A DNA stretch of 64,000 nucleotides. Source: Acidobacteria bacterium RIFCSPLOWO2_02_FULL_67_21 (lineage in GTDB: Bacteria > Acidobacteriota > Vicinamibacteria > Vicinamibacterales > UBA2999). This document shows positions 50,920-59,535 of the stretch, piece by piece; the stretch's first letter is position 1, and every line of letters begins with the position of its first letter. The stretch spans positions 64,088 to 128,087 of the forward strand of contig MEKU01000019.1 of NCBI GenBank assembly GCA_001767195.1, in the 5' to 3' direction. Both the position numbers and the translations under genes were made by a program. Under the pieces are notes generated by a model. The model did not search any database. It was not told where the DNA came from and saw only the letters and a list, made by a program, of their open reading frames with translations.

Positions 50920-53047
<2,128 letters not shown>

Positions 53048-53127
53048 ATTGACGGATTTACGAATTTACGAATTTACGAAATTGGTCCTGGCAAATTCGT
53101 CAATCCGTAAATCCGTCAATTCGTAAA
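53048..53127. repeat. AT-rich imperfect palindromic element, copy 1 (built from ATTGACG / ATTTACGA units)
   Basis: ATTGACGGATTTACGAATTTACGAATTTACGAAATTGG-tcctg-GCAAATTCGTCAATCCGTAAATCCGTCAATTCGTAAAT. It fills the mreB|mreC spacer, from 1 nt after the TGA to 4 nt before the ATG. Confidence 0.8.
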
Positions 53128-53131
53128 TGAC

Positions 53132-54001
53132 ATGGCTCTGCTCGATATCCGCCAGCGCACGGGCTATCTCTTCATCGCGCTGACCATCGGCCAGATCATT
53201 CTCATTTCTGCGCAGGTCAACACCGCCCGCGGCATCCCGGTCCTCGAAGCCGTCACGTTCGGCGTGTTTGCCGAGATTCAGCGGGTCGCCTCGTCCGGCC
53301 TCAGCGGCATGCGCGCCTCGTGGACCGATTACGTGGCGCTCCAGGAAGTGCGGACCGAGAACGAGCGATTGCGGGACGAGGTCGGGCGGCTGCGGGTGGG
53401 GCTTCAGCAGGAGCGCGCCCTCGCCCAGCGGTCGCGGACGCTCGAGCAGCTGCTGGAGCTGCGCACCCAGGCGGATCTGGCCACCGTGGCGGCCAACGTC
53501 ATCGCCGGCGGCGCCAGCCCGGACTTCCGGACGATGACCATCGACCGGGGCACCGGCGACGGCCTTCGCCCCGACATGGCGGTCATCGCCCCGGCCGGGG
53601 TGGTCGGCCGGATCATCACGCCCAGCGCCCGCGCGGCCAAGGTGCAGCTGCTCATCGACCGCAACGCGGCGGCGGGGGGGCTGGTGGAGCGGTCGCGGGC
53701 GCAGGGGGTCGTCGAGGGGACCGGCGGCGGCCTTCGGATGAGCTATGTCTCCGGAACCGCCGATATTCAGGTGGGCGACGCCGTGGTGACCTCCGGGATC
53801 GACGGCATTTACCCCAAGGGCTTCGTCATAGGTCAGATAGAATCTGTAGAGTGGGGGGAAGGCTCGTTCGGGGCGATCGCCATCCGGCCGGCCGTTGACT
53901 TCTCCTCGATAGAGGCGGTGCTCGTGGTGCTGACGCCGCCGGCAGCGGTCGAGGACGAGACGCCGGGCGAGAGCGCGGGAGCGGCCCCTGCCGCGCCGTA
54001 G
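53132..54001 (+). CDS. mreC: Rod-shape-determining protein MreC
   Basis: N-terminal TM, a coiled coil (ENERLRDEVGRLR), then beta domains (VVTSGIDGIYPKGFVIGQI). Confidence 0.9.
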   Translation: MALLDIRQRTGYLFIALTIGQIILISAQVNTARGIPVLEAVTFGVFAEIQRVASSGLSGMRASWTDYVALQEVRTENERLRDEVGRLRVGLQQERALAQRSRTLEQLLELRTQADLATVAANVIAGGASPDFRTMTIDRGTGDGLRPDMAVIAPAGVVGRIITPSARAAKVQLLIDRNAAAGGLVERSRAQGVVEGTGGGLRMSYVSGTADIQVGDAVVTSGIDGIYPKGFVIGQIESVEWGEGSFGAIAIRPAVDFSSIEAVLVVLTPPAAVEDETPGESAGAAPAAP

Positions 54002-54022
54002 CGCGAGAGCGCGGAGGCGGGA

Positions 54023-54523
54023 GTGAGAGCGGTCGGCGTGCTGATCGCGATCGCGATGGCGATCGCGCTGCAGACGACGCTCGCGCGATTTCTGGTGGCC
54101 GGGACGGCGGCGGTGGATCTGGTGCTCGTCGTCGTGATCTACGTCGCGCTGACGGGCGGCGCGGTCACCGGGATGCTGGCGGGAAGCTTCGCCGGCATCA
54201 TCCAGGACGCGCTCTCGAGCGGTGTGATCGGCATCGGCGGGCTGGCCAAGTTGATTGTCGGGTTTCTTGCCGGGGCGATCGGCCAGCAGTTCATCGTCAC
54301 GTCGGCGCTGCCGCGGTTTCTGACGTTCCTGGTGGCGACCGTGGTGCACGCCGCGGTGTTCATGGGGTTGTACGTGCTGCTCGGGCTCCGCTCGTTTCCG
54401 TCGCCGTGGACGGCGATCCTGAGTCAGGCGGTCGGGAATGCCGCCGTCGGCATGATCGCCTTCACGGTGCTCGAGTCGCTGCCGGGAGTCGCGGAGCGGC
54501 GGAGAGCGAAGAGAAGGATGTAG
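54023..54523 (+). CDS. mreD: Rod-shape-determining protein MreD
   Basis: 166-aa polytopic protein directly after mreC. GTG start. Confidence 0.85.
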   Translation: MRAVGVLIAIAMAIALQTTLARFLVAGTAAVDLVLVVVIYVALTGGAVTGMLAGSFAGIIQDALSSGVIGIGGLAKLIVGFLAGAIGQQFIVTSALPRFLTFLVATVVHAAVFMGLYVLLGLRSFPSPWTAILSQAVGNAAVGMIAFTVLESLPGVAERRRAKRRM

Positions 54524-54561
54524 GGGTCAGGGGGCCTCGCCTCGCCCCTTCAATTGGAACC

Positions 54562-56490
54562 ATGGCACTAACCGAAGATCGCCGGCGAATGGCCGTCCGC
54601 CTGATGGTGCTGCAGGTCAGCGCCGTCCTGGCGTTTGCCGCGCTCGCCATCAGCTTCTGGTTCCTCCAGATCGCGCAGCACCCCCGCTACCAGGAGATGG
54701 CCGAGAACAACCACCAGCGGACGCTCGCGCTGCGGGCGCCGAGGGGCGTGCTGTTCGACCGCAACGGCACGGTGCTCGTCGAGAACCGGCATTCGTTCAA
54801 CGTGTCCATCGTCCGGGAGCACACCAAGGATCTCGACCGCACGATCCGGCTCCTCTCCGCGGTCGCCGGCCTCGATCCGAAGCAGGTGCGGCAGACGGTG
54901 GAGCGCCACCGCAGCGATCCCATCTACCGGCCGATCGTGGTCGTCGAGGACGCGACGCTCGCTCAGGTGGCGGCCATCGCCGCGCGGCGGCTGGACTTCG
55001 AGCTGCCGGACGTGGTCGTCGAACAGGTGCCGACGCGCCAGTATCCGGTCGACGCGCTCGCCGCGCATCTCTTCGGCTACGTCGGCGAAGCCAGCGAGGA
55101 CCAGCTGGGCGACGGCATCACGCGCGGGGCGCTGGTCGGGCAATCGGGCGTGGAGCGCGTCTACAACAGGCTGCTCATGGGCCAGGACGGCGCCCGCGTG
55201 GTTGTGGTCAACAGCGTCGGGCGCGAGATTCGCACCATCGAGGAGATTCCGCCGAAGGAAGGCCGCCGCGTCCAGCTCACGATCGACTCCGACCTGCAGA
55301 AGGCGGCCGAGGACGGCTTCAGGCATGCGGGGTTCAACGGTGCAGCGCTCATCATGGATCCCCGCACCGGCGAAGTGCTGACGTACGTGAGCCTGCCGGC
55401 CTACGACCCCAACGACTTTGCCGGCGGCATCGACCGCGCCACGTGGGCGTCGCTCAACGCCGACGAACTGCGGCCGCTGCAGAATCGCGCGATCCAGGGC
55501 CGGTACTCGCCGGGCTCCGCCTTCAAGCTCGTGGTGGCCACCGCCGCGCTCGAGGAGGGCATCGTCACGCCGGACTTCAAGGTGAACTGCGGCGGCGGCG
55601 CCAACTTCTTCGGCCGGTATTTCCTCTGCCATCTCAAGGGCGGCCATGGCGTTGTGGACATGCGGCACGCGATTGAGAAGTCGTGCAACGTGTACTTCTA
55701 CACGCTCGGCAACATGCTGGGTGTCGATCGCATCCACAAGTGGGCCGAACGGCTCGGGATGACCGGCAAGACCGGCATCGACCTGCCCAACGAGCAGGAG
55801 AGCCTCGTCCCCTCGACCGCCTGGAAGCTCGAGCGCACCGGCGAGCGCTGGTATCCCGGCGAGACGATTTCGGTCTCGATCGGCCAGGGGCAGGTGTCGG
55901 TCACGCCGGCCGCGATGGCCATGATGATCACGACGATCGCGAACGGCGGCACCCGCGTCACGCCGCACATCGTGCGGGCCGTCGACGAGGGCGGCGGGTG
56001 GCGCATGGCCACGCCGCCGGTCGTTGCCGAGAGCATGGCCTTCCGTCCCGAGACGCTGGCGGCGCTCCATGACGGGCTCTGGATGGCGGTCAATGCCGCC
56101 GGCACCGGCGGCCGGGCGCGGATCGAGGGGCGCGACGTTGCGGGCAAGACCGGCACCGCCCAGGTGATCTCGAATCAGGGCCGGCAGGCCGCCCGGGGGT
56201 CGGAACGGGATCTGCGCGACCACGGATGGTTCGTGTTCTTCGCCCCGAAGGACAACCCTGAGATTGCAGGCGTCATCTTCGGCGAGCACAACGAGCACGG
56301 CTATCTCGGGGCGCCGATCGCCAGGCACGTGATCCAGACGTATTTCGCAAAGAAGGAAGGGCTGCCGCTGCCGGTGCTGGCGCCGCCGCCCCCGGCCGCG
56401 CCGGAACCGGACCCGGACACCGCGCCGGTCGAGATCGCGCCCGCCATTGCCGCCACGCCGGCCGCGGGCGCGGCGCCCGGCACGAACTAG
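54562..56490 (+). CDS. mrdA: Penicillin-binding protein 2 (elongasome transpeptidase)
   Basis: ATG 54562 (MALTEDRRR). The PBP dimer domain is followed by the transpeptidase motifs SPGSAFK, SCN and KTGTAQ. Confidence 0.95.
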   Translation: MALTEDRRRMAVRLMVLQVSAVLAFAALAISFWFLQIAQHPRYQEMAENNHQRTLALRAPRGVLFDRNGTVLVENRHSFNVSIVREHTKDLDRTIRLLSAVAGLDPKQVRQTVERHRSDPIYRPIVVVEDATLAQVAAIAARRLDFELPDVVVEQVPTRQYPVDALAAHLFGYVGEASEDQLGDGITRGALVGQSGVERVYNRLLMGQDGARVVVVNSVGREIRTIEEIPPKEGRRVQLTIDSDLQKAAEDGFRHAGFNGAALIMDPRTGEVLTYVSLPAYDPNDFAGGIDRATWASLNADELRPLQNRAIQGRYSPGSAFKLVVATAALEEGIVTPDFKVNCGGGANFFGRYFLCHLKGGHGVVDMRHAIEKSCNVYFYTLGNMLGVDRIHKWAERLGMTGKTGIDLPNEQESLVPSTAWKLERTGERWYPGETISVSIGQGQVSVTPAAMAMMITTIANGGTRVTPHIVRAVDEGGGWRMATPPVVAESMAFRPETLAALHDGLWMAVNAAGTGGRARIEGRDVAGKTGTAQVISNQGRQAARGSERDLRDHGWFVFFAPKDNPEIAGVIFGEHNEHGYLGAPIARHVIQTYFAKKEGLPLPVLAPPPPAAPEPDPDTAPVEIAPAIAATPAAGAAPGTN

Positions 56491-56492
56491 GC

Positions 56493-56589
56493 ATTGACGA
56501 ATTTACGAATTTACGAATTGACGTATTTGAACGCATGGACATCACGCTCTTGGCAATTCGTCAATTCGCAAATCCGTAGATCCGTCAAT
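56493..56589. repeat. AT-rich imperfect palindromic element, copy 2 (same family as 53048-53127)
   Basis: The left arm ATTGACGAATTTACGAATTTACGAATTGACGTATTTG matches the reverse complement of the right arm (CAATTCGTCAATTCGCAAATCCGTAGATCCGTCAAT) at about 31/36. The terminal CGTCAAT includes the AT of the rodA ATG. Confidence 0.8.
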
Positions 56590-57673
56590 GTTTGAGCGAA
56601 GGCTTTACCATCACATCGACTGGGCGCTGCTGCTGGCGGTGGCCGCCCTGTGCCTGCTCGGCATCACGCAGATCTACAGCGCGACCGGCGGATGGACCGA
56701 CATCGTCCAGACGCAGATCTACGCCGTGCTGCTCGGGGTGCTCGCGCTCGTGGTGTGCCTCAGCATCGACTACCGCTCGCTCGCCGACAAGTCGCACTTC
56801 ATCTACATCGCCGTCATCGCGCTGCTGGCCTGCGTGCTCTTCTTCGGGGCGGTCCGCGGAGGCTCGCGGCGCTGGATCGATCTCGACGTTTTCAACATCC
56901 AGCCGTCGGAGTTTGCGAAGGCGGCGCTGGCGCTCGTGCTGGCGAAGTTCTTCGGTGAGAGCCGCCGCGGCACGGTGACGCGCGTCGACCTGGTCGTGGC
57001 GGGCGCCCTGACGGCGATCCCGCTCGTGCTCATCGCGCAGCAGCCCGACCTCGGCACCGCGGCGACGCTCATCCCCGTGGCATTCGCGGTGGCGTACGTG
57101 GCGGGCATGCCGATGCGGCTCGTGGGCGTGCTGGCGCTCATGGGTGTGCTGGCGGCGCCCGTCGCCTGGAAGTTTGCGCTGCAGGACTATCAGAGGGAAC
57201 GCATTTCGACATTTCTCGATCCGGCGCAGGATGCCAGGGGCGCCGGGTATCAGCAGATTCAGGCCCGCATCACGGTGGGATCCGGCGGGCTCTGGGGAAA
57301 GGGATTCACTGAGGGCACGCAGGGCCAGCTGCGGTTTCTGCCCGTGGCGCACAACGACTTCATCTTCTCCGTGCTCTCCGAAGAGCAGGGGTTTGCCGGA
57401 GTGATTGTGGCGCTCGGGCTCTATTTGTTCGTCATTCTGCGTGCGCTCGAGTCGGCCCGGCTCGCCAAGGACCGGCTCGGCGCGTACCTGGTGCTGGGAG
57501 TACTGGCCAGCTTCACGTTCCAGGTGATCTACAACATCACGATGTCGGCCGGCCTGGCGCCGGTCAAGGGATTGACGCTTCCGCTCATGAGCTACGGCGG
57601 GTCCTCGATGATCGCCACCCTGGCAGGATTCGGCCTAATCCTCAACGTGCGGATGCGGCGGTTCACGAACTAA
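56588..57673 (+). CDS. rodA: Peptidoglycan glycosyltransferase RodA (SEDS family)
   Basis: 361 aa, 10 TM, FtsW/RodA/SpoVE pattern (..HNDFIFSVLSEEQGF..PLMSYGGSSM). Confidence 0.95.
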   Translation: MFERRLYHHIDWALLLAVAALCLLGITQIYSATGGWTDIVQTQIYAVLLGVLALVVCLSIDYRSLADKSHFIYIAVIALLACVLFFGAVRGGSRRWIDLDVFNIQPSEFAKAALALVLAKFFGESRRGTVTRVDLVVAGALTAIPLVLIAQQPDLGTAATLIPVAFAVAYVAGMPMRLVGVLALMGVLAAPVAWKFALQDYQRERISTFLDPAQDARGAGYQQIQARITVGSGGLWGKGFTEGTQGQLRFLPVAHNDFIFSVLSEEQGFAGVIVALGLYLFVILRALESARLAKDRLGAYLVLGVLASFTFQVIYNITMSAGLAPVKGLTLPLMSYGGSSMIATLAGFGLILNVRMRRFTN

Positions 57674-57682
57674 CCCGGCTTT

Positions 57683-57747
57683 GGGCTTCAGGCTTCAGGC
57701 TTTCGGCCGTGTTCGGCCAGAAGCCCGGCGCCCGAAGCCTGAAGCCC
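57683..57747 (+). terminator. Compound stem-loop after rodA / in the rng leader
   Basis: GGGCTTCAGGCTTCAGGCTTTCGG ... CCGAAGCCTGAAGCCC gives a 16-nt perfect complement to one register of the GGCTTCA tandem. An inner GGCCG-tgtt-CGGCC hairpin lies inside. No U-tract. Confidence 0.4.
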
Positions 57748-57858
57748 TTAGATTGGGCTCGATCATGCCGCACGTCCTCATGTTCATCCTGCGCTCGATC
57801 GCCGAGCTGTTCGGGGTGTATCTCGTGCGGCGCGCAGAGCCCGTTCGGAGCTGCGGGC

Positions 57859-59466
57859 ATGACCAAGGAGATGATCGTCTCCTCGAGCGCCCACGAGACA
57901 CGGGTCGCAATCCTCGAGGACGACCAGGTCGCCGAGATCTTCATCGAGCGCGAGCGGCAGCGCGGCGTGGTCGGCAATTTGTACAAGGGCCGGGTCTCGA
58001 AAGTGCTGCCCGGCATGCAGTCGGCGTTCGTTGAGCTCGGCCTCGAGCGCGACGGCTTTCTCTACGTCACCGACGTCATCCCCTCGACCGACGAGTTCGA
58101 TCGGTTCGAGACGGAAGAGGACGCGTCTGCCCCATCTCCCGTACGTGGGGCGGGTTCCGCCGAGGACCGCGGCTCATCCGCAGGCGGACCCGCCGGGGGC
58201 GGGCGTGGAGGCCGACGCGATCGCGACCGCGACAAAGGCCCGGAACCGAAGATCGAAGAGCTCGTCAAAGAGGGCCAGGACATCATCGTCCAGGTGGCCA
58301 AGGAGCCGCTCGGCACCAAGGGCGCGCGGCTGACCTGCCATGCCACGATGCCGGGCCGGTTCCTCGTGTTCATGCCGACGGTGGACCACATCGGCGTGTC
58401 CCGGAAGATCGATTCCCGCGACGAGCGCAGCCGGCTGCGCGGGATCGTGCGGGAGTTCCGGGAGCAGCACGGTTTCACGGGAGGCGTCATCATCAGGACC
58501 GCCGCCGCCGGCCGGCCCAAGGAAGACATCGTCGCGGATCTGAGCTACTTCCACCGGGTCTGGACCGAGATCCGCCAGAAGGCCGAGTCGTCGCGCGCGC
58601 CCGCGGTCGTCTATCAGGAGCAGAGCCTGGTCGCCAAGCTGCTTCGCGATCTGCTCACCGAGGAGTTCTCGGCGATCCGCATCGACAACGAGGTCGAATA
58701 CCGGCGTGTCTGCGAGCTGATCGAGCGCATCATGCCTGCCCTGGCGCCGCGGGTGAAGCTCTACGACAAGGAATTCCCGATCTTCGAGGAGTACGGCGTC
58801 CAGCCCGAAATCGACCGGGCCCTTCGCAGCAAGGTCTGGCTGAAATCCGGCGGGTCGATTGTCATCAACCAGACGGAAGCGCTCGTGGCGATCGACGTCA
58901 ACACGGGGCGGTACGTCGGCAAGAAGACGGCCGGACGGCTCGAAGACACGATCCTCAAGACCAACCTCGAGGCTGTGAAGGAGATCGTCCGCCAGATCCG
59001 CCTCCGCGACCTTGGCGGAATCATCGTGCTCGATTTCATCGACATGGAGGAGAAGAAGAACCGGCAGAAGGTCTTTCAGGCCGTCGAGCAGGAGCTGCGC
59101 AAGGACCGCTCGCCGTCCAAGGCGCTGCAGGTGTCGGACTTCGGGCTCGTGATCATCACCCGCAAGCGGGTCAAGCAGAGCCTCGAGCGCGTGCTGACCG
59201 AGCCGTGCCCGTACTGCGCCGGCAGCTCCGTCATCAAGTCGACGTCGACCATCTGCTACGAGATTCTGTCGGAGGTCAAGAAGATCAGCGGCGACCTCAA
59301 CGGGCAGACGCTGATCCTCCGCGTGAACCCCGACATCGCGCGCGCGCTCCGCGACGAGGAGCGCGCCGTCTTCAAGGACCTGAAGCAGTCGCTCGGGCGC
59401 GAGGTCGCCCTGCGGGCCGATGCCCAGCTGCACCACGAGCAGTTCGACCTGATGGCAGTGGGATAG
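57859..59466 (+). CDS. rng: Ribonuclease G (RNase E/G family)
   Basis: ATG 57859 (MTKEMIVSS). S1 domain GNLYKGRVSKVLPGMQSAFVELG, then the catalytic core ..AIDVNTG..GGIIVLDFIDM. A Gly/Arg/Asp-rich insert lies at nt 58090-58251. Confidence 0.9.
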   Translation: MTKEMIVSSSAHETRVAILEDDQVAEIFIERERQRGVVGNLYKGRVSKVLPGMQSAFVELGLERDGFLYVTDVIPSTDEFDRFETEEDASAPSPVRGAGSAEDRGSSAGGPAGGGRGGRRDRDRDKGPEPKIEELVKEGQDIIVQVAKEPLGTKGARLTCHATMPGRFLVFMPTVDHIGVSRKIDSRDERSRLRGIVREFREQHGFTGGVIIRTAAAGRPKEDIVADLSYFHRVWTEIRQKAESSRAPAVVYQEQSLVAKLLRDLLTEEFSAIRIDNEVEYRRVCELIERIMPALAPRVKLYDKEFPIFEEYGVQPEIDRALRSKVWLKSGGSIVINQTEALVAIDVNTGRYVGKKTAGRLEDTILKTNLEAVKEIVRQIRLRDLGGIIVLDFIDMEEKKNRQKVFQAVEQELRKDRSPSKALQVSDFGLVIITRKRVKQSLERVLTEPCPYCAGSSVIKSTSTICYEILSEVKKISGDLNGQTLILRVNPDIARALRDEERAVFKDLKQSLGREVALRADAQLHHEQFDLMAVG

Positions 59467-59522
59467 GGATTCGGGATTCGGGATTGGGGATTGGTGTAGG
59501 CCGGGGTCCTGTAGGACCCGGC
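59466..59522 (+). repeat. Tandem GGGATTS heptamers (G-quadruplex-type motif) followed by a REP-like hairpin
   Basis: GGGATTC GGGATTC GGGATTG GGGATTG (G-tracts at 59466-68, 59473-75, 59480-82 and 59486-89), then GTAGG-CCGGGGTCC-tgta-GGACCCGGC. Confidence 0.6.
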
Positions 59523-59535
59523 GGAGGCTTCGTAG

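Follow-up and report, generated by a model that had tools for sequence, protein, structure and literature searches.

A hairpin that buries the rodA start codon in an acidobacterial mre operon is probably a tolerated, lineage-specific repeat insertion

The window analysed here is a stretch of 64,000 nucleotides of contig MEKU01000019.1 from Acidobacteria bacterium RIFCSPLOWO2_02_FULL_67_21, and the element under study is a long inverted repeat that separates mrdA, encoding PBP2, from rodA. According to the list of open reading frames (ORFs), the genes of this region are ordered as GGDEF protein, mreB, mreC, mreD, mrdA, rodA and an RNase E/G gene (rng), an assignment supported by Pfam matches to MreB, MreC, MreD, PBP2 (transpeptidase and dimerisation domain), RodA (FTSW_RODA_SPOVE) and RNase E/G. 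From the mrdA TAG to the rodA ATG there are 97 AT-rich bases, with a GC content of about 41% in comparison with about 67% in the surroundings. The features of this junction are the following:

54406-56490, + strand, mrdA (PBP2) ORF (ORF list; Pfam Transpeptidase and PBP_dimer), stop TAG at 56488-56490
56492-56527, + strand, left arm of the element, CATTGACG AATTTACG AATTTACG AATTGACG TATT (repeat search; Tandem Repeats Finder, TRF, period 8)
56528-56554, + strand, loop of 27 nt, GC-richer than the arms, its sequence not common to other copies
56555-56590, + strand, right arm, AATTCGTC AATTCGCA AATCCGTA GATCCGTC AATG, its end being the rodA ATG
56588-57673, + strand, rodA, ATG at 56588-56590 and stop TAA at 57671-57673 (ORF list, Pfam)
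56494-56595, + strand, mini-ORF of 33 codons with a TTG start, crossing the whole element, its TGA (56593-56595) overlapping the rodA start (ATGTTTGA)

The inverted repeat (56492-56590) consists of two arms of 36 nt complementary at 31 of 36 positions (86%), and in the repeat search each arm resolves into four head-to-tail units of 8 nt (4.5 copies of period 8 by TRF). The element begins 1-2 nt past the mrdA TAG, and its terminal ...CAAT contributes the A and the T of the rodA ATG. The original prediction, made from the sequence alone, had drawn the outer stem from 2 nt past the TAG to these same two bases, and the sequence confirms it; the loop of 24 nt given there holds with its own arm boundaries and becomes 27 nt with those of the repeat search. 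Folding of the RNA between 56485 and 56600 resulted in a minimum free energy of -41.2 kcal/mol, in comparison with -23.8 ± 3.0 kcal/mol for 200 dinucleotide shuffles (z = -5.87), none of which was as good. In the predicted fold, C56492-A-U56494 pairs with A56588-U-G56590 of rodA, the mrdA UAG lies within the lowest wobble pairs, and mismatches break the stem at intervals of about 8 bp. The fold model is thus in agreement with the claim that the rodA start codon is sequestered. The accompanying claim that rodA has no Shine-Dalgarno (SD) sequence was also borne out, with no GGAGG-like motif in the 20 nt preceding its ATG. This ATG is the first possible start after the in-frame TAG at 56576-56578, with no alternative at that position, and corresponds to the start codon of M-[F/L]-E-R-R-L-Y, found at the same position in all 80 orthologs described below. 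Likewise, the C-terminal '...T N stop' of mrdA is conserved across orthologs.

The unit pattern was matched 13 times in the window, against 0.17 matches expected by chance, and all matches fell within the rodA copy and a second copy at the mreB-mreC junction. Furthermore, contigs from independent soil and groundwater metagenomes (runs X2, X5 and X6) span the rodA element with 0 differences, which indicates that it is not an assembly artefact. A chance inverted repeat or an artefact, for which nothing speaks beyond low sequence complexity, is already refuted by these matches, by the fold (z = -5.9, 0/200 shuffles as good), by the identical contigs and by the many relatives of the element, and the predicted hairpin is to be regarded as real. 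As for the statement that two independent copies exist, the second copy was indeed found, but both belong to one family and do not show independent invention. A scan detected no intrinsic terminator in either window copy, the stem of the rodA element being followed by GTTTGAGC, and Rfam returned nothing at the gathering threshold and nothing on the element at E values up to 10.

The rodA element belongs, as a copy without an ORF, to a dispersed family of octamer-array foldbacks of the form 5'-(ATTKACGR)n - variable loop - (YCGTMAAT)n-3'. An exact 21-mer common to both window copies occurs at 104 loci of a species-representative genome collection, many of them in Acidobacteriota/Vicinamibacterales metagenome-assembled genomes (MAGs) of 62-69% GC, often with several loci per MAG, and it also matches Chloroflexota, Bacteroidota, Patescibacteria and others. 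The sharing of the octamer across phyla was discarded as proof of one mobile element, since it is inseparable from chance convergence among many unit families. In high-GC loci, 22 hairpin copies were detected, all with the ATTKACGR array ahead of the loop and the YCGTMAAT array behind it, and every one with a different loop. The element has the attributes of an array foldback: at least three head-to-tail units of 7-8 nt, an inverted complementary array nearby, and dispersed intergenic loci (two in the window, several in each related MAG). It also has the terminal inverted repeats of a miniature inverted-repeat transposable element (MITE), namely the 36-nt arms with the fixed family polarity ATTKACG...CGTMAAT; the conserved internal sequence of a MITE was not found, the loops differing in all copies. 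An exact-sequence literature search gave no match to the octamer dimer.

In the detector count of ACGAATTT-type hairpins over all loci (L001-L184 and the window), the ATTKACGR array came first and the YCGTMAAT array second in 32 cases to 0. Such strict polarity is strand-symmetric and would not arise if arrays were duplicated at random in inverted orientation; on visual inspection, the reverse order, with variant units, was seen in a few Chloroflexi loci (L014, L021, L097). In runs X1 and X2, the contig word depth over the repeat arms (52988-53131 and 56444-56587) was 3 to 20 times that of the flanks, and contigs often broke or diverged at 53046/53048, 53094, 53128 and 56491. The raised depth and the contig breaks indicate that many other copies are present in the source communities, and that the repeat interrupts the assembly of short reads.

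Regarding the genetic context of the 22 copies, 13 have co-directional genes on their two sides, 4 divergent and 1 convergent ones, and 4 were of undetermined context. In the co-directional copies the upstream stop codon lies at most about 5 nt from the array edge and the downstream start codon 0-24 nt from the other edge, so that the arrangement at rodA is typical of the family. All 13 fold strongly (-35 to -81 kcal/mol), and their sense-strand mismatches comprise 18 G·U versus 13 A·C, a difference that is not significant and gives no sign of selection on the coding-strand RNA. The possibility that the element builds start codons (G after the terminal AAT, C before ATT) was rejected, because the frequencies were about 30-40%, near base composition.

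The mini-ORF that crosses the rodA element starts 3 nt past the mrdA TAG, and the copy at mreB-mreC contains an analogous one (TTG 53049 to TAA 53124-53126). An open frame through the element was present in only 3-4 of 13 copies across the family, and ribosome relay by a mini-ORF was dismissed as a family property, with 4/12 sense contexts against 2/12 antisense controls. The mini-ORF at rodA could relay ribosomes, but it is probably there by chance.

In divergent contexts (e.g. L038 and the MBL-hydrolase/lipA loci of L185-L192) the element fills the whole space between two start codons, which implies some promoter inside elements of the ATTKACGR family. By analogy, rodA could be transcribed from the loop, with the right arm as an unstructured AU-rich leader and the start codon not sequestered. 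We consider such an internal promoter very unlikely in the window, where no sigma-70-like site was found by a scan of positions 52900-56800, and given that ancestrally the genes form an operon in which they overlap or abut.

The history of the junction was reconstructed from 80 further loci from metagenomes, with RodA proteins 71-88% identical to that of the window; both genes were present at 72 junctions. The mrdA-rodA spacer measured -1 to 12 nt in 52 of these 72 junctions, typically as TGAgATG or overlapping TGATG, and such short spacing is that of translationally coupled genes (review PMC12548453). An Acidobacteriota MAG with the whole operon (L048, RodA 86% identical) has at this position only 'AACTAG tggtggattagc GTGTTCGAG', with a GTG start after tggtggattagc. 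The ATTGACG-type element was found only in the window and in its closest relative, L126 (88% identical), being absent from 70 of the 72 junctions. The two copies can be aligned in register and share their boundaries, and each has an ATG formed by the terminal ...AAT plus G. The arms of the L126 copy have drifted, its fold is no better than that of shuffles (z = -1.2), and its last 16 nt, including the AUG, are unpaired. These comparisons indicate that the rodA copy is a recent insertion, specific to the lineage of the window organism and L126, between a conserved mrdA stop and a conserved rodA start, and that the insert replaced whatever preceded the rodA start codon. The idea that the array was seeded in situ by the ACGAAC at the native 3' end of mrdA was set aside, the native octamer being 14 nt out of phase with the array. 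The element is flanked by GC and GT, and a possible AT or CAT...ATG duplication is indistinguishable from an extension of the inverted repeat, the empty site of L048 being of no help.

Altogether, we favour with moderate confidence the interpretation that the rodA hairpin is a tolerated selfish or neutral lineage-specific insertion, whose self-folding would keep RodA translation coupled to that of PBP2, and not a conserved regulator. In the proposed mechanism, the element would be co-transcribed with the operon and would fold on itself at about -41 kcal/mol, so that the 93 inserted bases would be looped out and the mrdA UAG and the rodA AUG would face each other at the foot of the stem. Loading of free 30S subunits at rodA would be blocked, because in the model the AUG lies in a duplex together with the 30 nt upstream of it, and an SD is absent. 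A ribosome ending at the UAG (56488-56490) would cover the next 9-12 nt or so and melt the pairing between 56488-56499 and 56583-56594, which would free the AUG. RodA synthesis would then stay dependent on PBP2 synthesis by RNA-unfolding coupling or by re-initiation, with a possible relay by the 33-codon TTG mini-ORF. On the basis of this fold, RodA translation is probably still coupled to PBP2 translation through unwinding by the ribosome. PBP2 and RodA form a 1:1 complex, and coupled RodA synthesis would match both this complex and the ancestral tight junction. The RNA-unfolding model of translational coupling is established (PMC12548453), and the predicted fold shows the structure that it implies, with the downstream AUG buried and the upstream stop at the stem base. 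The metatranscriptome runs found contain only about 25% of the mreB words, and their contigs at 85% likeness match only the conserved mreB of relatives and are silent on the junction. The locus represents a natural experiment, in which a spacer usually of 1 nt has grown to 97 nt and lacks an SD while rodA is still needed, and a clean test case for the question whether translational coupling is preserved by a self-folding insert.

A link to intervening sequences (IVSs) of 23S rRNA emerged from the search for related arrays. In a Vicinamibacterales locus (L042, 3446-4086), a gene for a protein of 130 aa with a match to PF05635 (23S rRNA-intervening sequence protein, E = 4.6e-12) is enclosed by an array of 13 ACGRATTT units and an inverted array of AATTCGTC. 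Homologs of this gene, which bear the annotation 'four helix bundle protein', are present at the lipA/MBL-hydrolase locus of other Vicinamibacterales (L185-L192), always between (ATTGACGG)n and (AATTCGTC)n arrays of 3 to >15 units. In these cassettes the arrays reach right up to the start codons of the adjacent genes (GTGCAT joined to TGACGG; CGTCAATG), which indicates that some promoter lies within the cassette. In the fetched loci, 8 of 8 genes of PF05635 or PF13366 (PD-(D/E)XK 'GxxExxY') were flanked by inverted 8-nt arrays whose units vary. Annotated plasmids, which were not selected for arrays, showed 7-8-nt inverted arrays around 4 of 5 four-helix-bundle genes, three in Nostoc and one in Riemerella, the latter inside the suf operon. 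No recognised transposase is encoded by the PF05635/PF13366 cassettes. Array-flanked genes of these families in Bacteroidota, Patescibacteria and Nostoc plasmids were observed in L091 (1492-1935, 5180-5640 and 6780-7290), L067 (6540-7090), L013 (3260-3870), L019 (800-1290), L026 (700-1150) and L194-L197, with a unit that differs from gene to gene. The literature searched contained no link of four-helix-bundle or GxxExxY genes with tandem-repeat flanks.

IVSs have been described as selfish elements that carry the S23p ORF in the loop of a stem of about 28 bp; the stem is formed by their terminal inverted repeats and is cut in its middle by RNase III (PMC4990558). By comparison with them, the window hairpin looks like an ORF-less relative of IVS-type cassettes. 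Homology of its loop to an IVS-protein cassette was considered and rejected, as only the 12-mer TTGACGTATTTG and fragments are shared, which is not significant. By the same analogy, the 36-bp duplex is a plausible RNase III substrate, and cleavage within it could split the mRNA into mrdA and rodA halves of different stability. This processing, which is compatible with a tolerated insertion, appears to us a possibility, although not a likely one. It would fit the long and nearly perfect duplex, the presence of octamer arrays of the rodA type at the ends of cassettes carrying the IVS protein, and the mid-stem cleavage of IVS stems of about 28 bp; on the other hand, the stem contains a mismatch about every 8 bp, and the L126 copy no longer forms the duplex. 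The role in differential translation or mRNA segmentation put forward in the original prediction is retained in part: cleavage is plausible by analogy, with arrays flanking IVS-protein genes, whereas a designed regulator is not upheld.

Foldbacks with unrelated units were found at the same junctions of other acidobacterial lineages. At mrdA-rodA, L156 (255-387) has a 148-nt hairpin of (AAATCCCA)5 and (TTTGGGAT)5 (-90.8 kcal/mol, z = -10), and AAATCCCA is also the unit flanking a PF05635/PF13366 gene in one Patescibacteria MAG. L153 has a CAGTTNC-type hairpin at this junction, and single arrays of AGTTAGAA (L162, L165), AACCGAGA (L177) and GAACCCG (L134) are also present there. The mreB-mreC junctions contain hairpins of GGCAGCG, GGGAACC, GGCAGTA and other units. 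Foldbacks or arrays of unrelated units at mre-operon junctions were noted in L156, L153, L117/L118 (mreB-mreC), L146, L112 and L157, with ACAGGTGT among the units. In L168, the mreB-mreC spacer of 150 nt contains a diverged second copy of the last 50 nt or so of mreB (...gatgctgtcggatttcaatctattgagaaagatttcgatcgattag), followed by a GC-rich hairpin, and could be what an insertion at the mreB 3' end has left behind. The comparison of sequences indicates that mre-operon junctions have been colonised independently and repeatedly by foldbacks of unrelated units.

The diversity of units bears on an explanation at the level of DNA, in which the inverted 8-bp units would be cooperative sites for a nucleoid protein or 'global regulator', or for a pentameric four-helix-bundle protein, the RNA hairpin being incidental. 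The 32 to 0 polarity of forward array, loop and reverse array is strand-symmetric, as are the mismatches; paired four-octanucleotide arrays of Geobacter metallireducens have been read as global-regulator sites (PMC2700814); and the arrays flank the gene of a protein family of nucleic-acid-binding type. However, at least 10 unrelated 7-8-nt units occur at the same kinds of site in close genomes, which would require many cognate binding proteins, no binding protein was identified, and a period of 8 bp does not match the DNA helical repeat. We regard a binding array as unlikely.

When 592 kb of ortholog loci were searched blindly for long inverted repeats, 33 were obtained, mostly with arms of period 7 or 8. 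With a strict detector, hairpins were counted in 7 of 32 mreB-mreC, 2 of 72 mrdA-rodA and 8 of 74 rodA-rng junctions, and in about 5-8% of other gaps; mreC-mreD is almost always a 4-nt overlap and has no hairpins. The mreB-mreC junction looks enriched for hairpins, as would fit a hairpin of some use behind mreB, a highly expressed gene, whereas mrdA-rodA is at or below background.

In the window itself, the following features accompany the rodA element:

52022-53047, + strand, mreB, stop TGA at 53045-53047
53046-53128, + strand, copy 1, an ATTKACGR-type foldback between the mreB stop and the mreC ATG (-34.6 kcal/mol, z = -4.1)
53132-54001, + strand, mreC, ATG at 53132
54023-54523, + strand, mreD (ORF list)
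57670-57751, + strand, third foldback, heptamer GGCTTCA / GAAGCCY, starting at the rodA stop (-51.6 kcal/mol, z = -6.15)
59466-59492, + strand, single array of about four GGGATTC/GGGATTG heptamers directly 3' of the RNase G stop (TRF, periodicity scan)

The periodicity scan detected strongly periodic 6-10-nt arrays in the window only at 53046, 56489 and 59463. Copy 1 is conserved in the ortholog L048. In the third foldback, CUAA is paired with UUAG, and the structure overlaps GTG 57709, mechanically called as the start of the RNase G gene; the gene probably starts further downstream, e.g. at the in-frame ATG 57766. The unit of the array at 59466-59492 is of the type of the Xanthomonas GGGAATC repeats, and a small GC-rich hairpin lies next to it (about 59499-59523). 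The mrdA ORF as mechanically called from GTG 54406 overlaps mreD by 118 nt (54406-54523), and the true mrdA start is probably downstream of 54406.

These data allow the weighing of an adaptive translational regulator, that is, a hairpin selected to set the PBP2:RodA and MreB:MreC ratios through start-codon sequestration. In its favour, the predicted fold buries the rodA AUG, the element is identical in independent metagenomes, two copies of one family and two further arrays share a single operon, with none elsewhere in the 64 kb, and unrelated hairpins occur at mreB-mreC in about 10 of 32 orthologs versus about 5-8% of other junctions. On the contrary, the element is missing from 70/72 mrdA-rodA junctions, the L126 copy has decayed and leaves its AUG free, the sense strand shows no G·U bias, ATTKACGR-type elements also adjoin unrelated genes and divergent promoter regions, and the long hairpins of the strict count are no commoner at mrdA-rodA than at background junctions. 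An adaptive regulator seems improbable to us, and a purpose-built regulatory role of the rodA hairpin is weakly supported. The earlier proposal of a regulator designed for the junctions between partner genes is not supported, the element being a dispersed repeat that lies beside unrelated genes in numerous genomes.

Several observations weigh against the tolerated insertion that we favour. All four short-period arrays lie within the mreB-to-rng string, in a window with about 47 intergenic gaps, and none occurs in the remaining 56 kb or so with about 40 other gaps; this clustering and the unrelated long hairpins at about 10 of 32 mreB-mreC junctions hint at something operon-specific. The clustering of the arrays fits local spread, regional permissiveness or selection in the operon, which the sequences do not separate. 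The window copy is near the family consensus and that of L126 is decayed, which could mean maintenance in the lineage of the window by selection or gene conversion instead of neutrality. In addition, neither a transposase nor recent identical copies nor an unambiguous target-site duplication came to light, so that the element is only putatively mobile. In our view, this eye-catching start-burying hairpin in an essential cell-shape operon is most likely the trace of a repeat insertion, and a warning against deducing function from structure alone.

On a broader level, we tentatively propose that inverted 7-8-nt tandem arrays may be the termini of one widespread, unnamed class of cassettes, which would include the heptamers of the cyanobacterial short tandemly repeated repetitive (STRR) elements and the octamers of the rodA type. 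The cargo of this putative class would be a four-helix-bundle (S23p/Avd-like) or a PD-(D/E)XK 'GxxExxY' protein. ORF-less derivatives would be far more numerous and would spread into DNA that is transcribed (rRNA helices, RNase P RNA, operon junctions), as folding of the transcript onto itself lets the insert be neutralised or cut out as RNA, and the rodA and mreC initiation regions would have been taken over in this way. The proposal is speculative; if true, the synthesis of two essential elongasome proteins, those of rodA and mreC, runs through a repeat hairpin. The association of such arrays with genes for IVS or GxxExxY proteins, observed in Acidobacteriota, Bacteroidota, Cyanobacteriota and Patescibacteria, constitutes a concrete, testable hypothesis, with a bearing on the 35-year-old question of the nature of STRR-type repeats and on the tolerance of IVS-like elements inside functional RNAs.

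In relation to known systems, the element is an STRR-like or IVS-like foldback, in this case octameric, located in Acidobacteriota and forming the rodA initiation region. STRR repeats reportedly lie inside cyanobacterial RNase P RNA genes (Vioque 1997). The STRR heptamers of heterocystous cyanobacteria and the GGGAATC heptamers of Xanthomonas and Nostoc are, like the rodA element, intergenic tandem arrays of 7-8 nt (Rehm 2015, PMC4692102). The GGGAATC and GGGGAYT heptamers of Xanthomonas and Nostoc include some inverted pairs able to form stem-loops and some arrays within operons, one of these between pecE and pecF, with an array length that varies between relatives (PMC4692102), and the Nostoc four-helix-bundle genes are flanked by such heptamer arrays. 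The rodA-type unit differs in being an AT-rich octamer in an acidobacterial genome of 67% GC, in the dominance of the fixed-polarity hairpin and in its lack of G-quadruplex potential. In Geobacter metallireducens, three to five tandem units of 7-9 nt form opposite-strand pairs at variable distance in tens of loci, including proB-proA (Aklujkar 2009, PMC2700814), and were classed as 'global regulator binding sites' 1-3, read as IHF/HU-type sites without a test (PMC2700814). They share with the rodA element the paired inverted short-unit arrays, some of them between operon genes; the unit sequences differ, and no association with start codons or IVS-protein genes was noted there.

REP/BIME, REPIN and other MITEs (Correia/NEMIS, ERIC, MIRU) are also palindromes that are scattered between genes and transcribed together with operons. 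RNase III acts on the hairpins of Correia elements, and MIRUs overlap with the stop codon of one operon gene and the start codon of the next. Tagged REPs have a unit of 20-40 bp with a short stem (8-9 bp in CGTC families), a loop of 4-5 nt and a GTAG or CGTC tag that is left unpaired (PMC3733652). A GTAG- or CGTC-tagged REP was rejected as an identity for the rodA element, whose 36-nt tandem-octamer arms and 27-nt loop do not correspond to this architecture. From MITEs in general, the rodA-type copies differ in having variable loops and no conserved core. Nor was a RAYT transposase encountered, although no search aimed at it was made. The Foldback (FB) transposons of eukaryotes have long inverted termini made of short tandem subrepeats and a variable, sometimes coding, middle. 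Their architecture is that of the rodA element, with no homology implied; they differ in the domain of life and in a much larger size.

With the RNA-unfolding coupling of f1 gene VII/IX, MS2 coat-lysis and rpmI-rplT, the rodA junction would share a downstream start silenced by a structure that the upstream ribosome opens (PMC12548453); at rodA, the predicted silencing structure is an inserted repeat across the whole 97-nt spacer. In comparison with the IVSs of Leptospira, Coxiella and Xanthomonas, the rodA element is located at a gene junction of an mRNA instead of helix 9, 25 or 45 of 23S rRNA, its 27-nt loop has no PF05635 ORF, which its array relatives in L042 and L185-L192 do carry, and its arms are tandem octamers, not found described for IVSs in the literature searched. 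Both are selfish-looking inserts in a transcribed region with a long terminal-repeat stem that holds the flanks together, the inverted termini of the rodA element giving a stem of at least 20 bp as in IVSs, and the PF05635 cassettes of Vicinamibacterales carry the same ATTGACGR octamer arrays as the rodA element.

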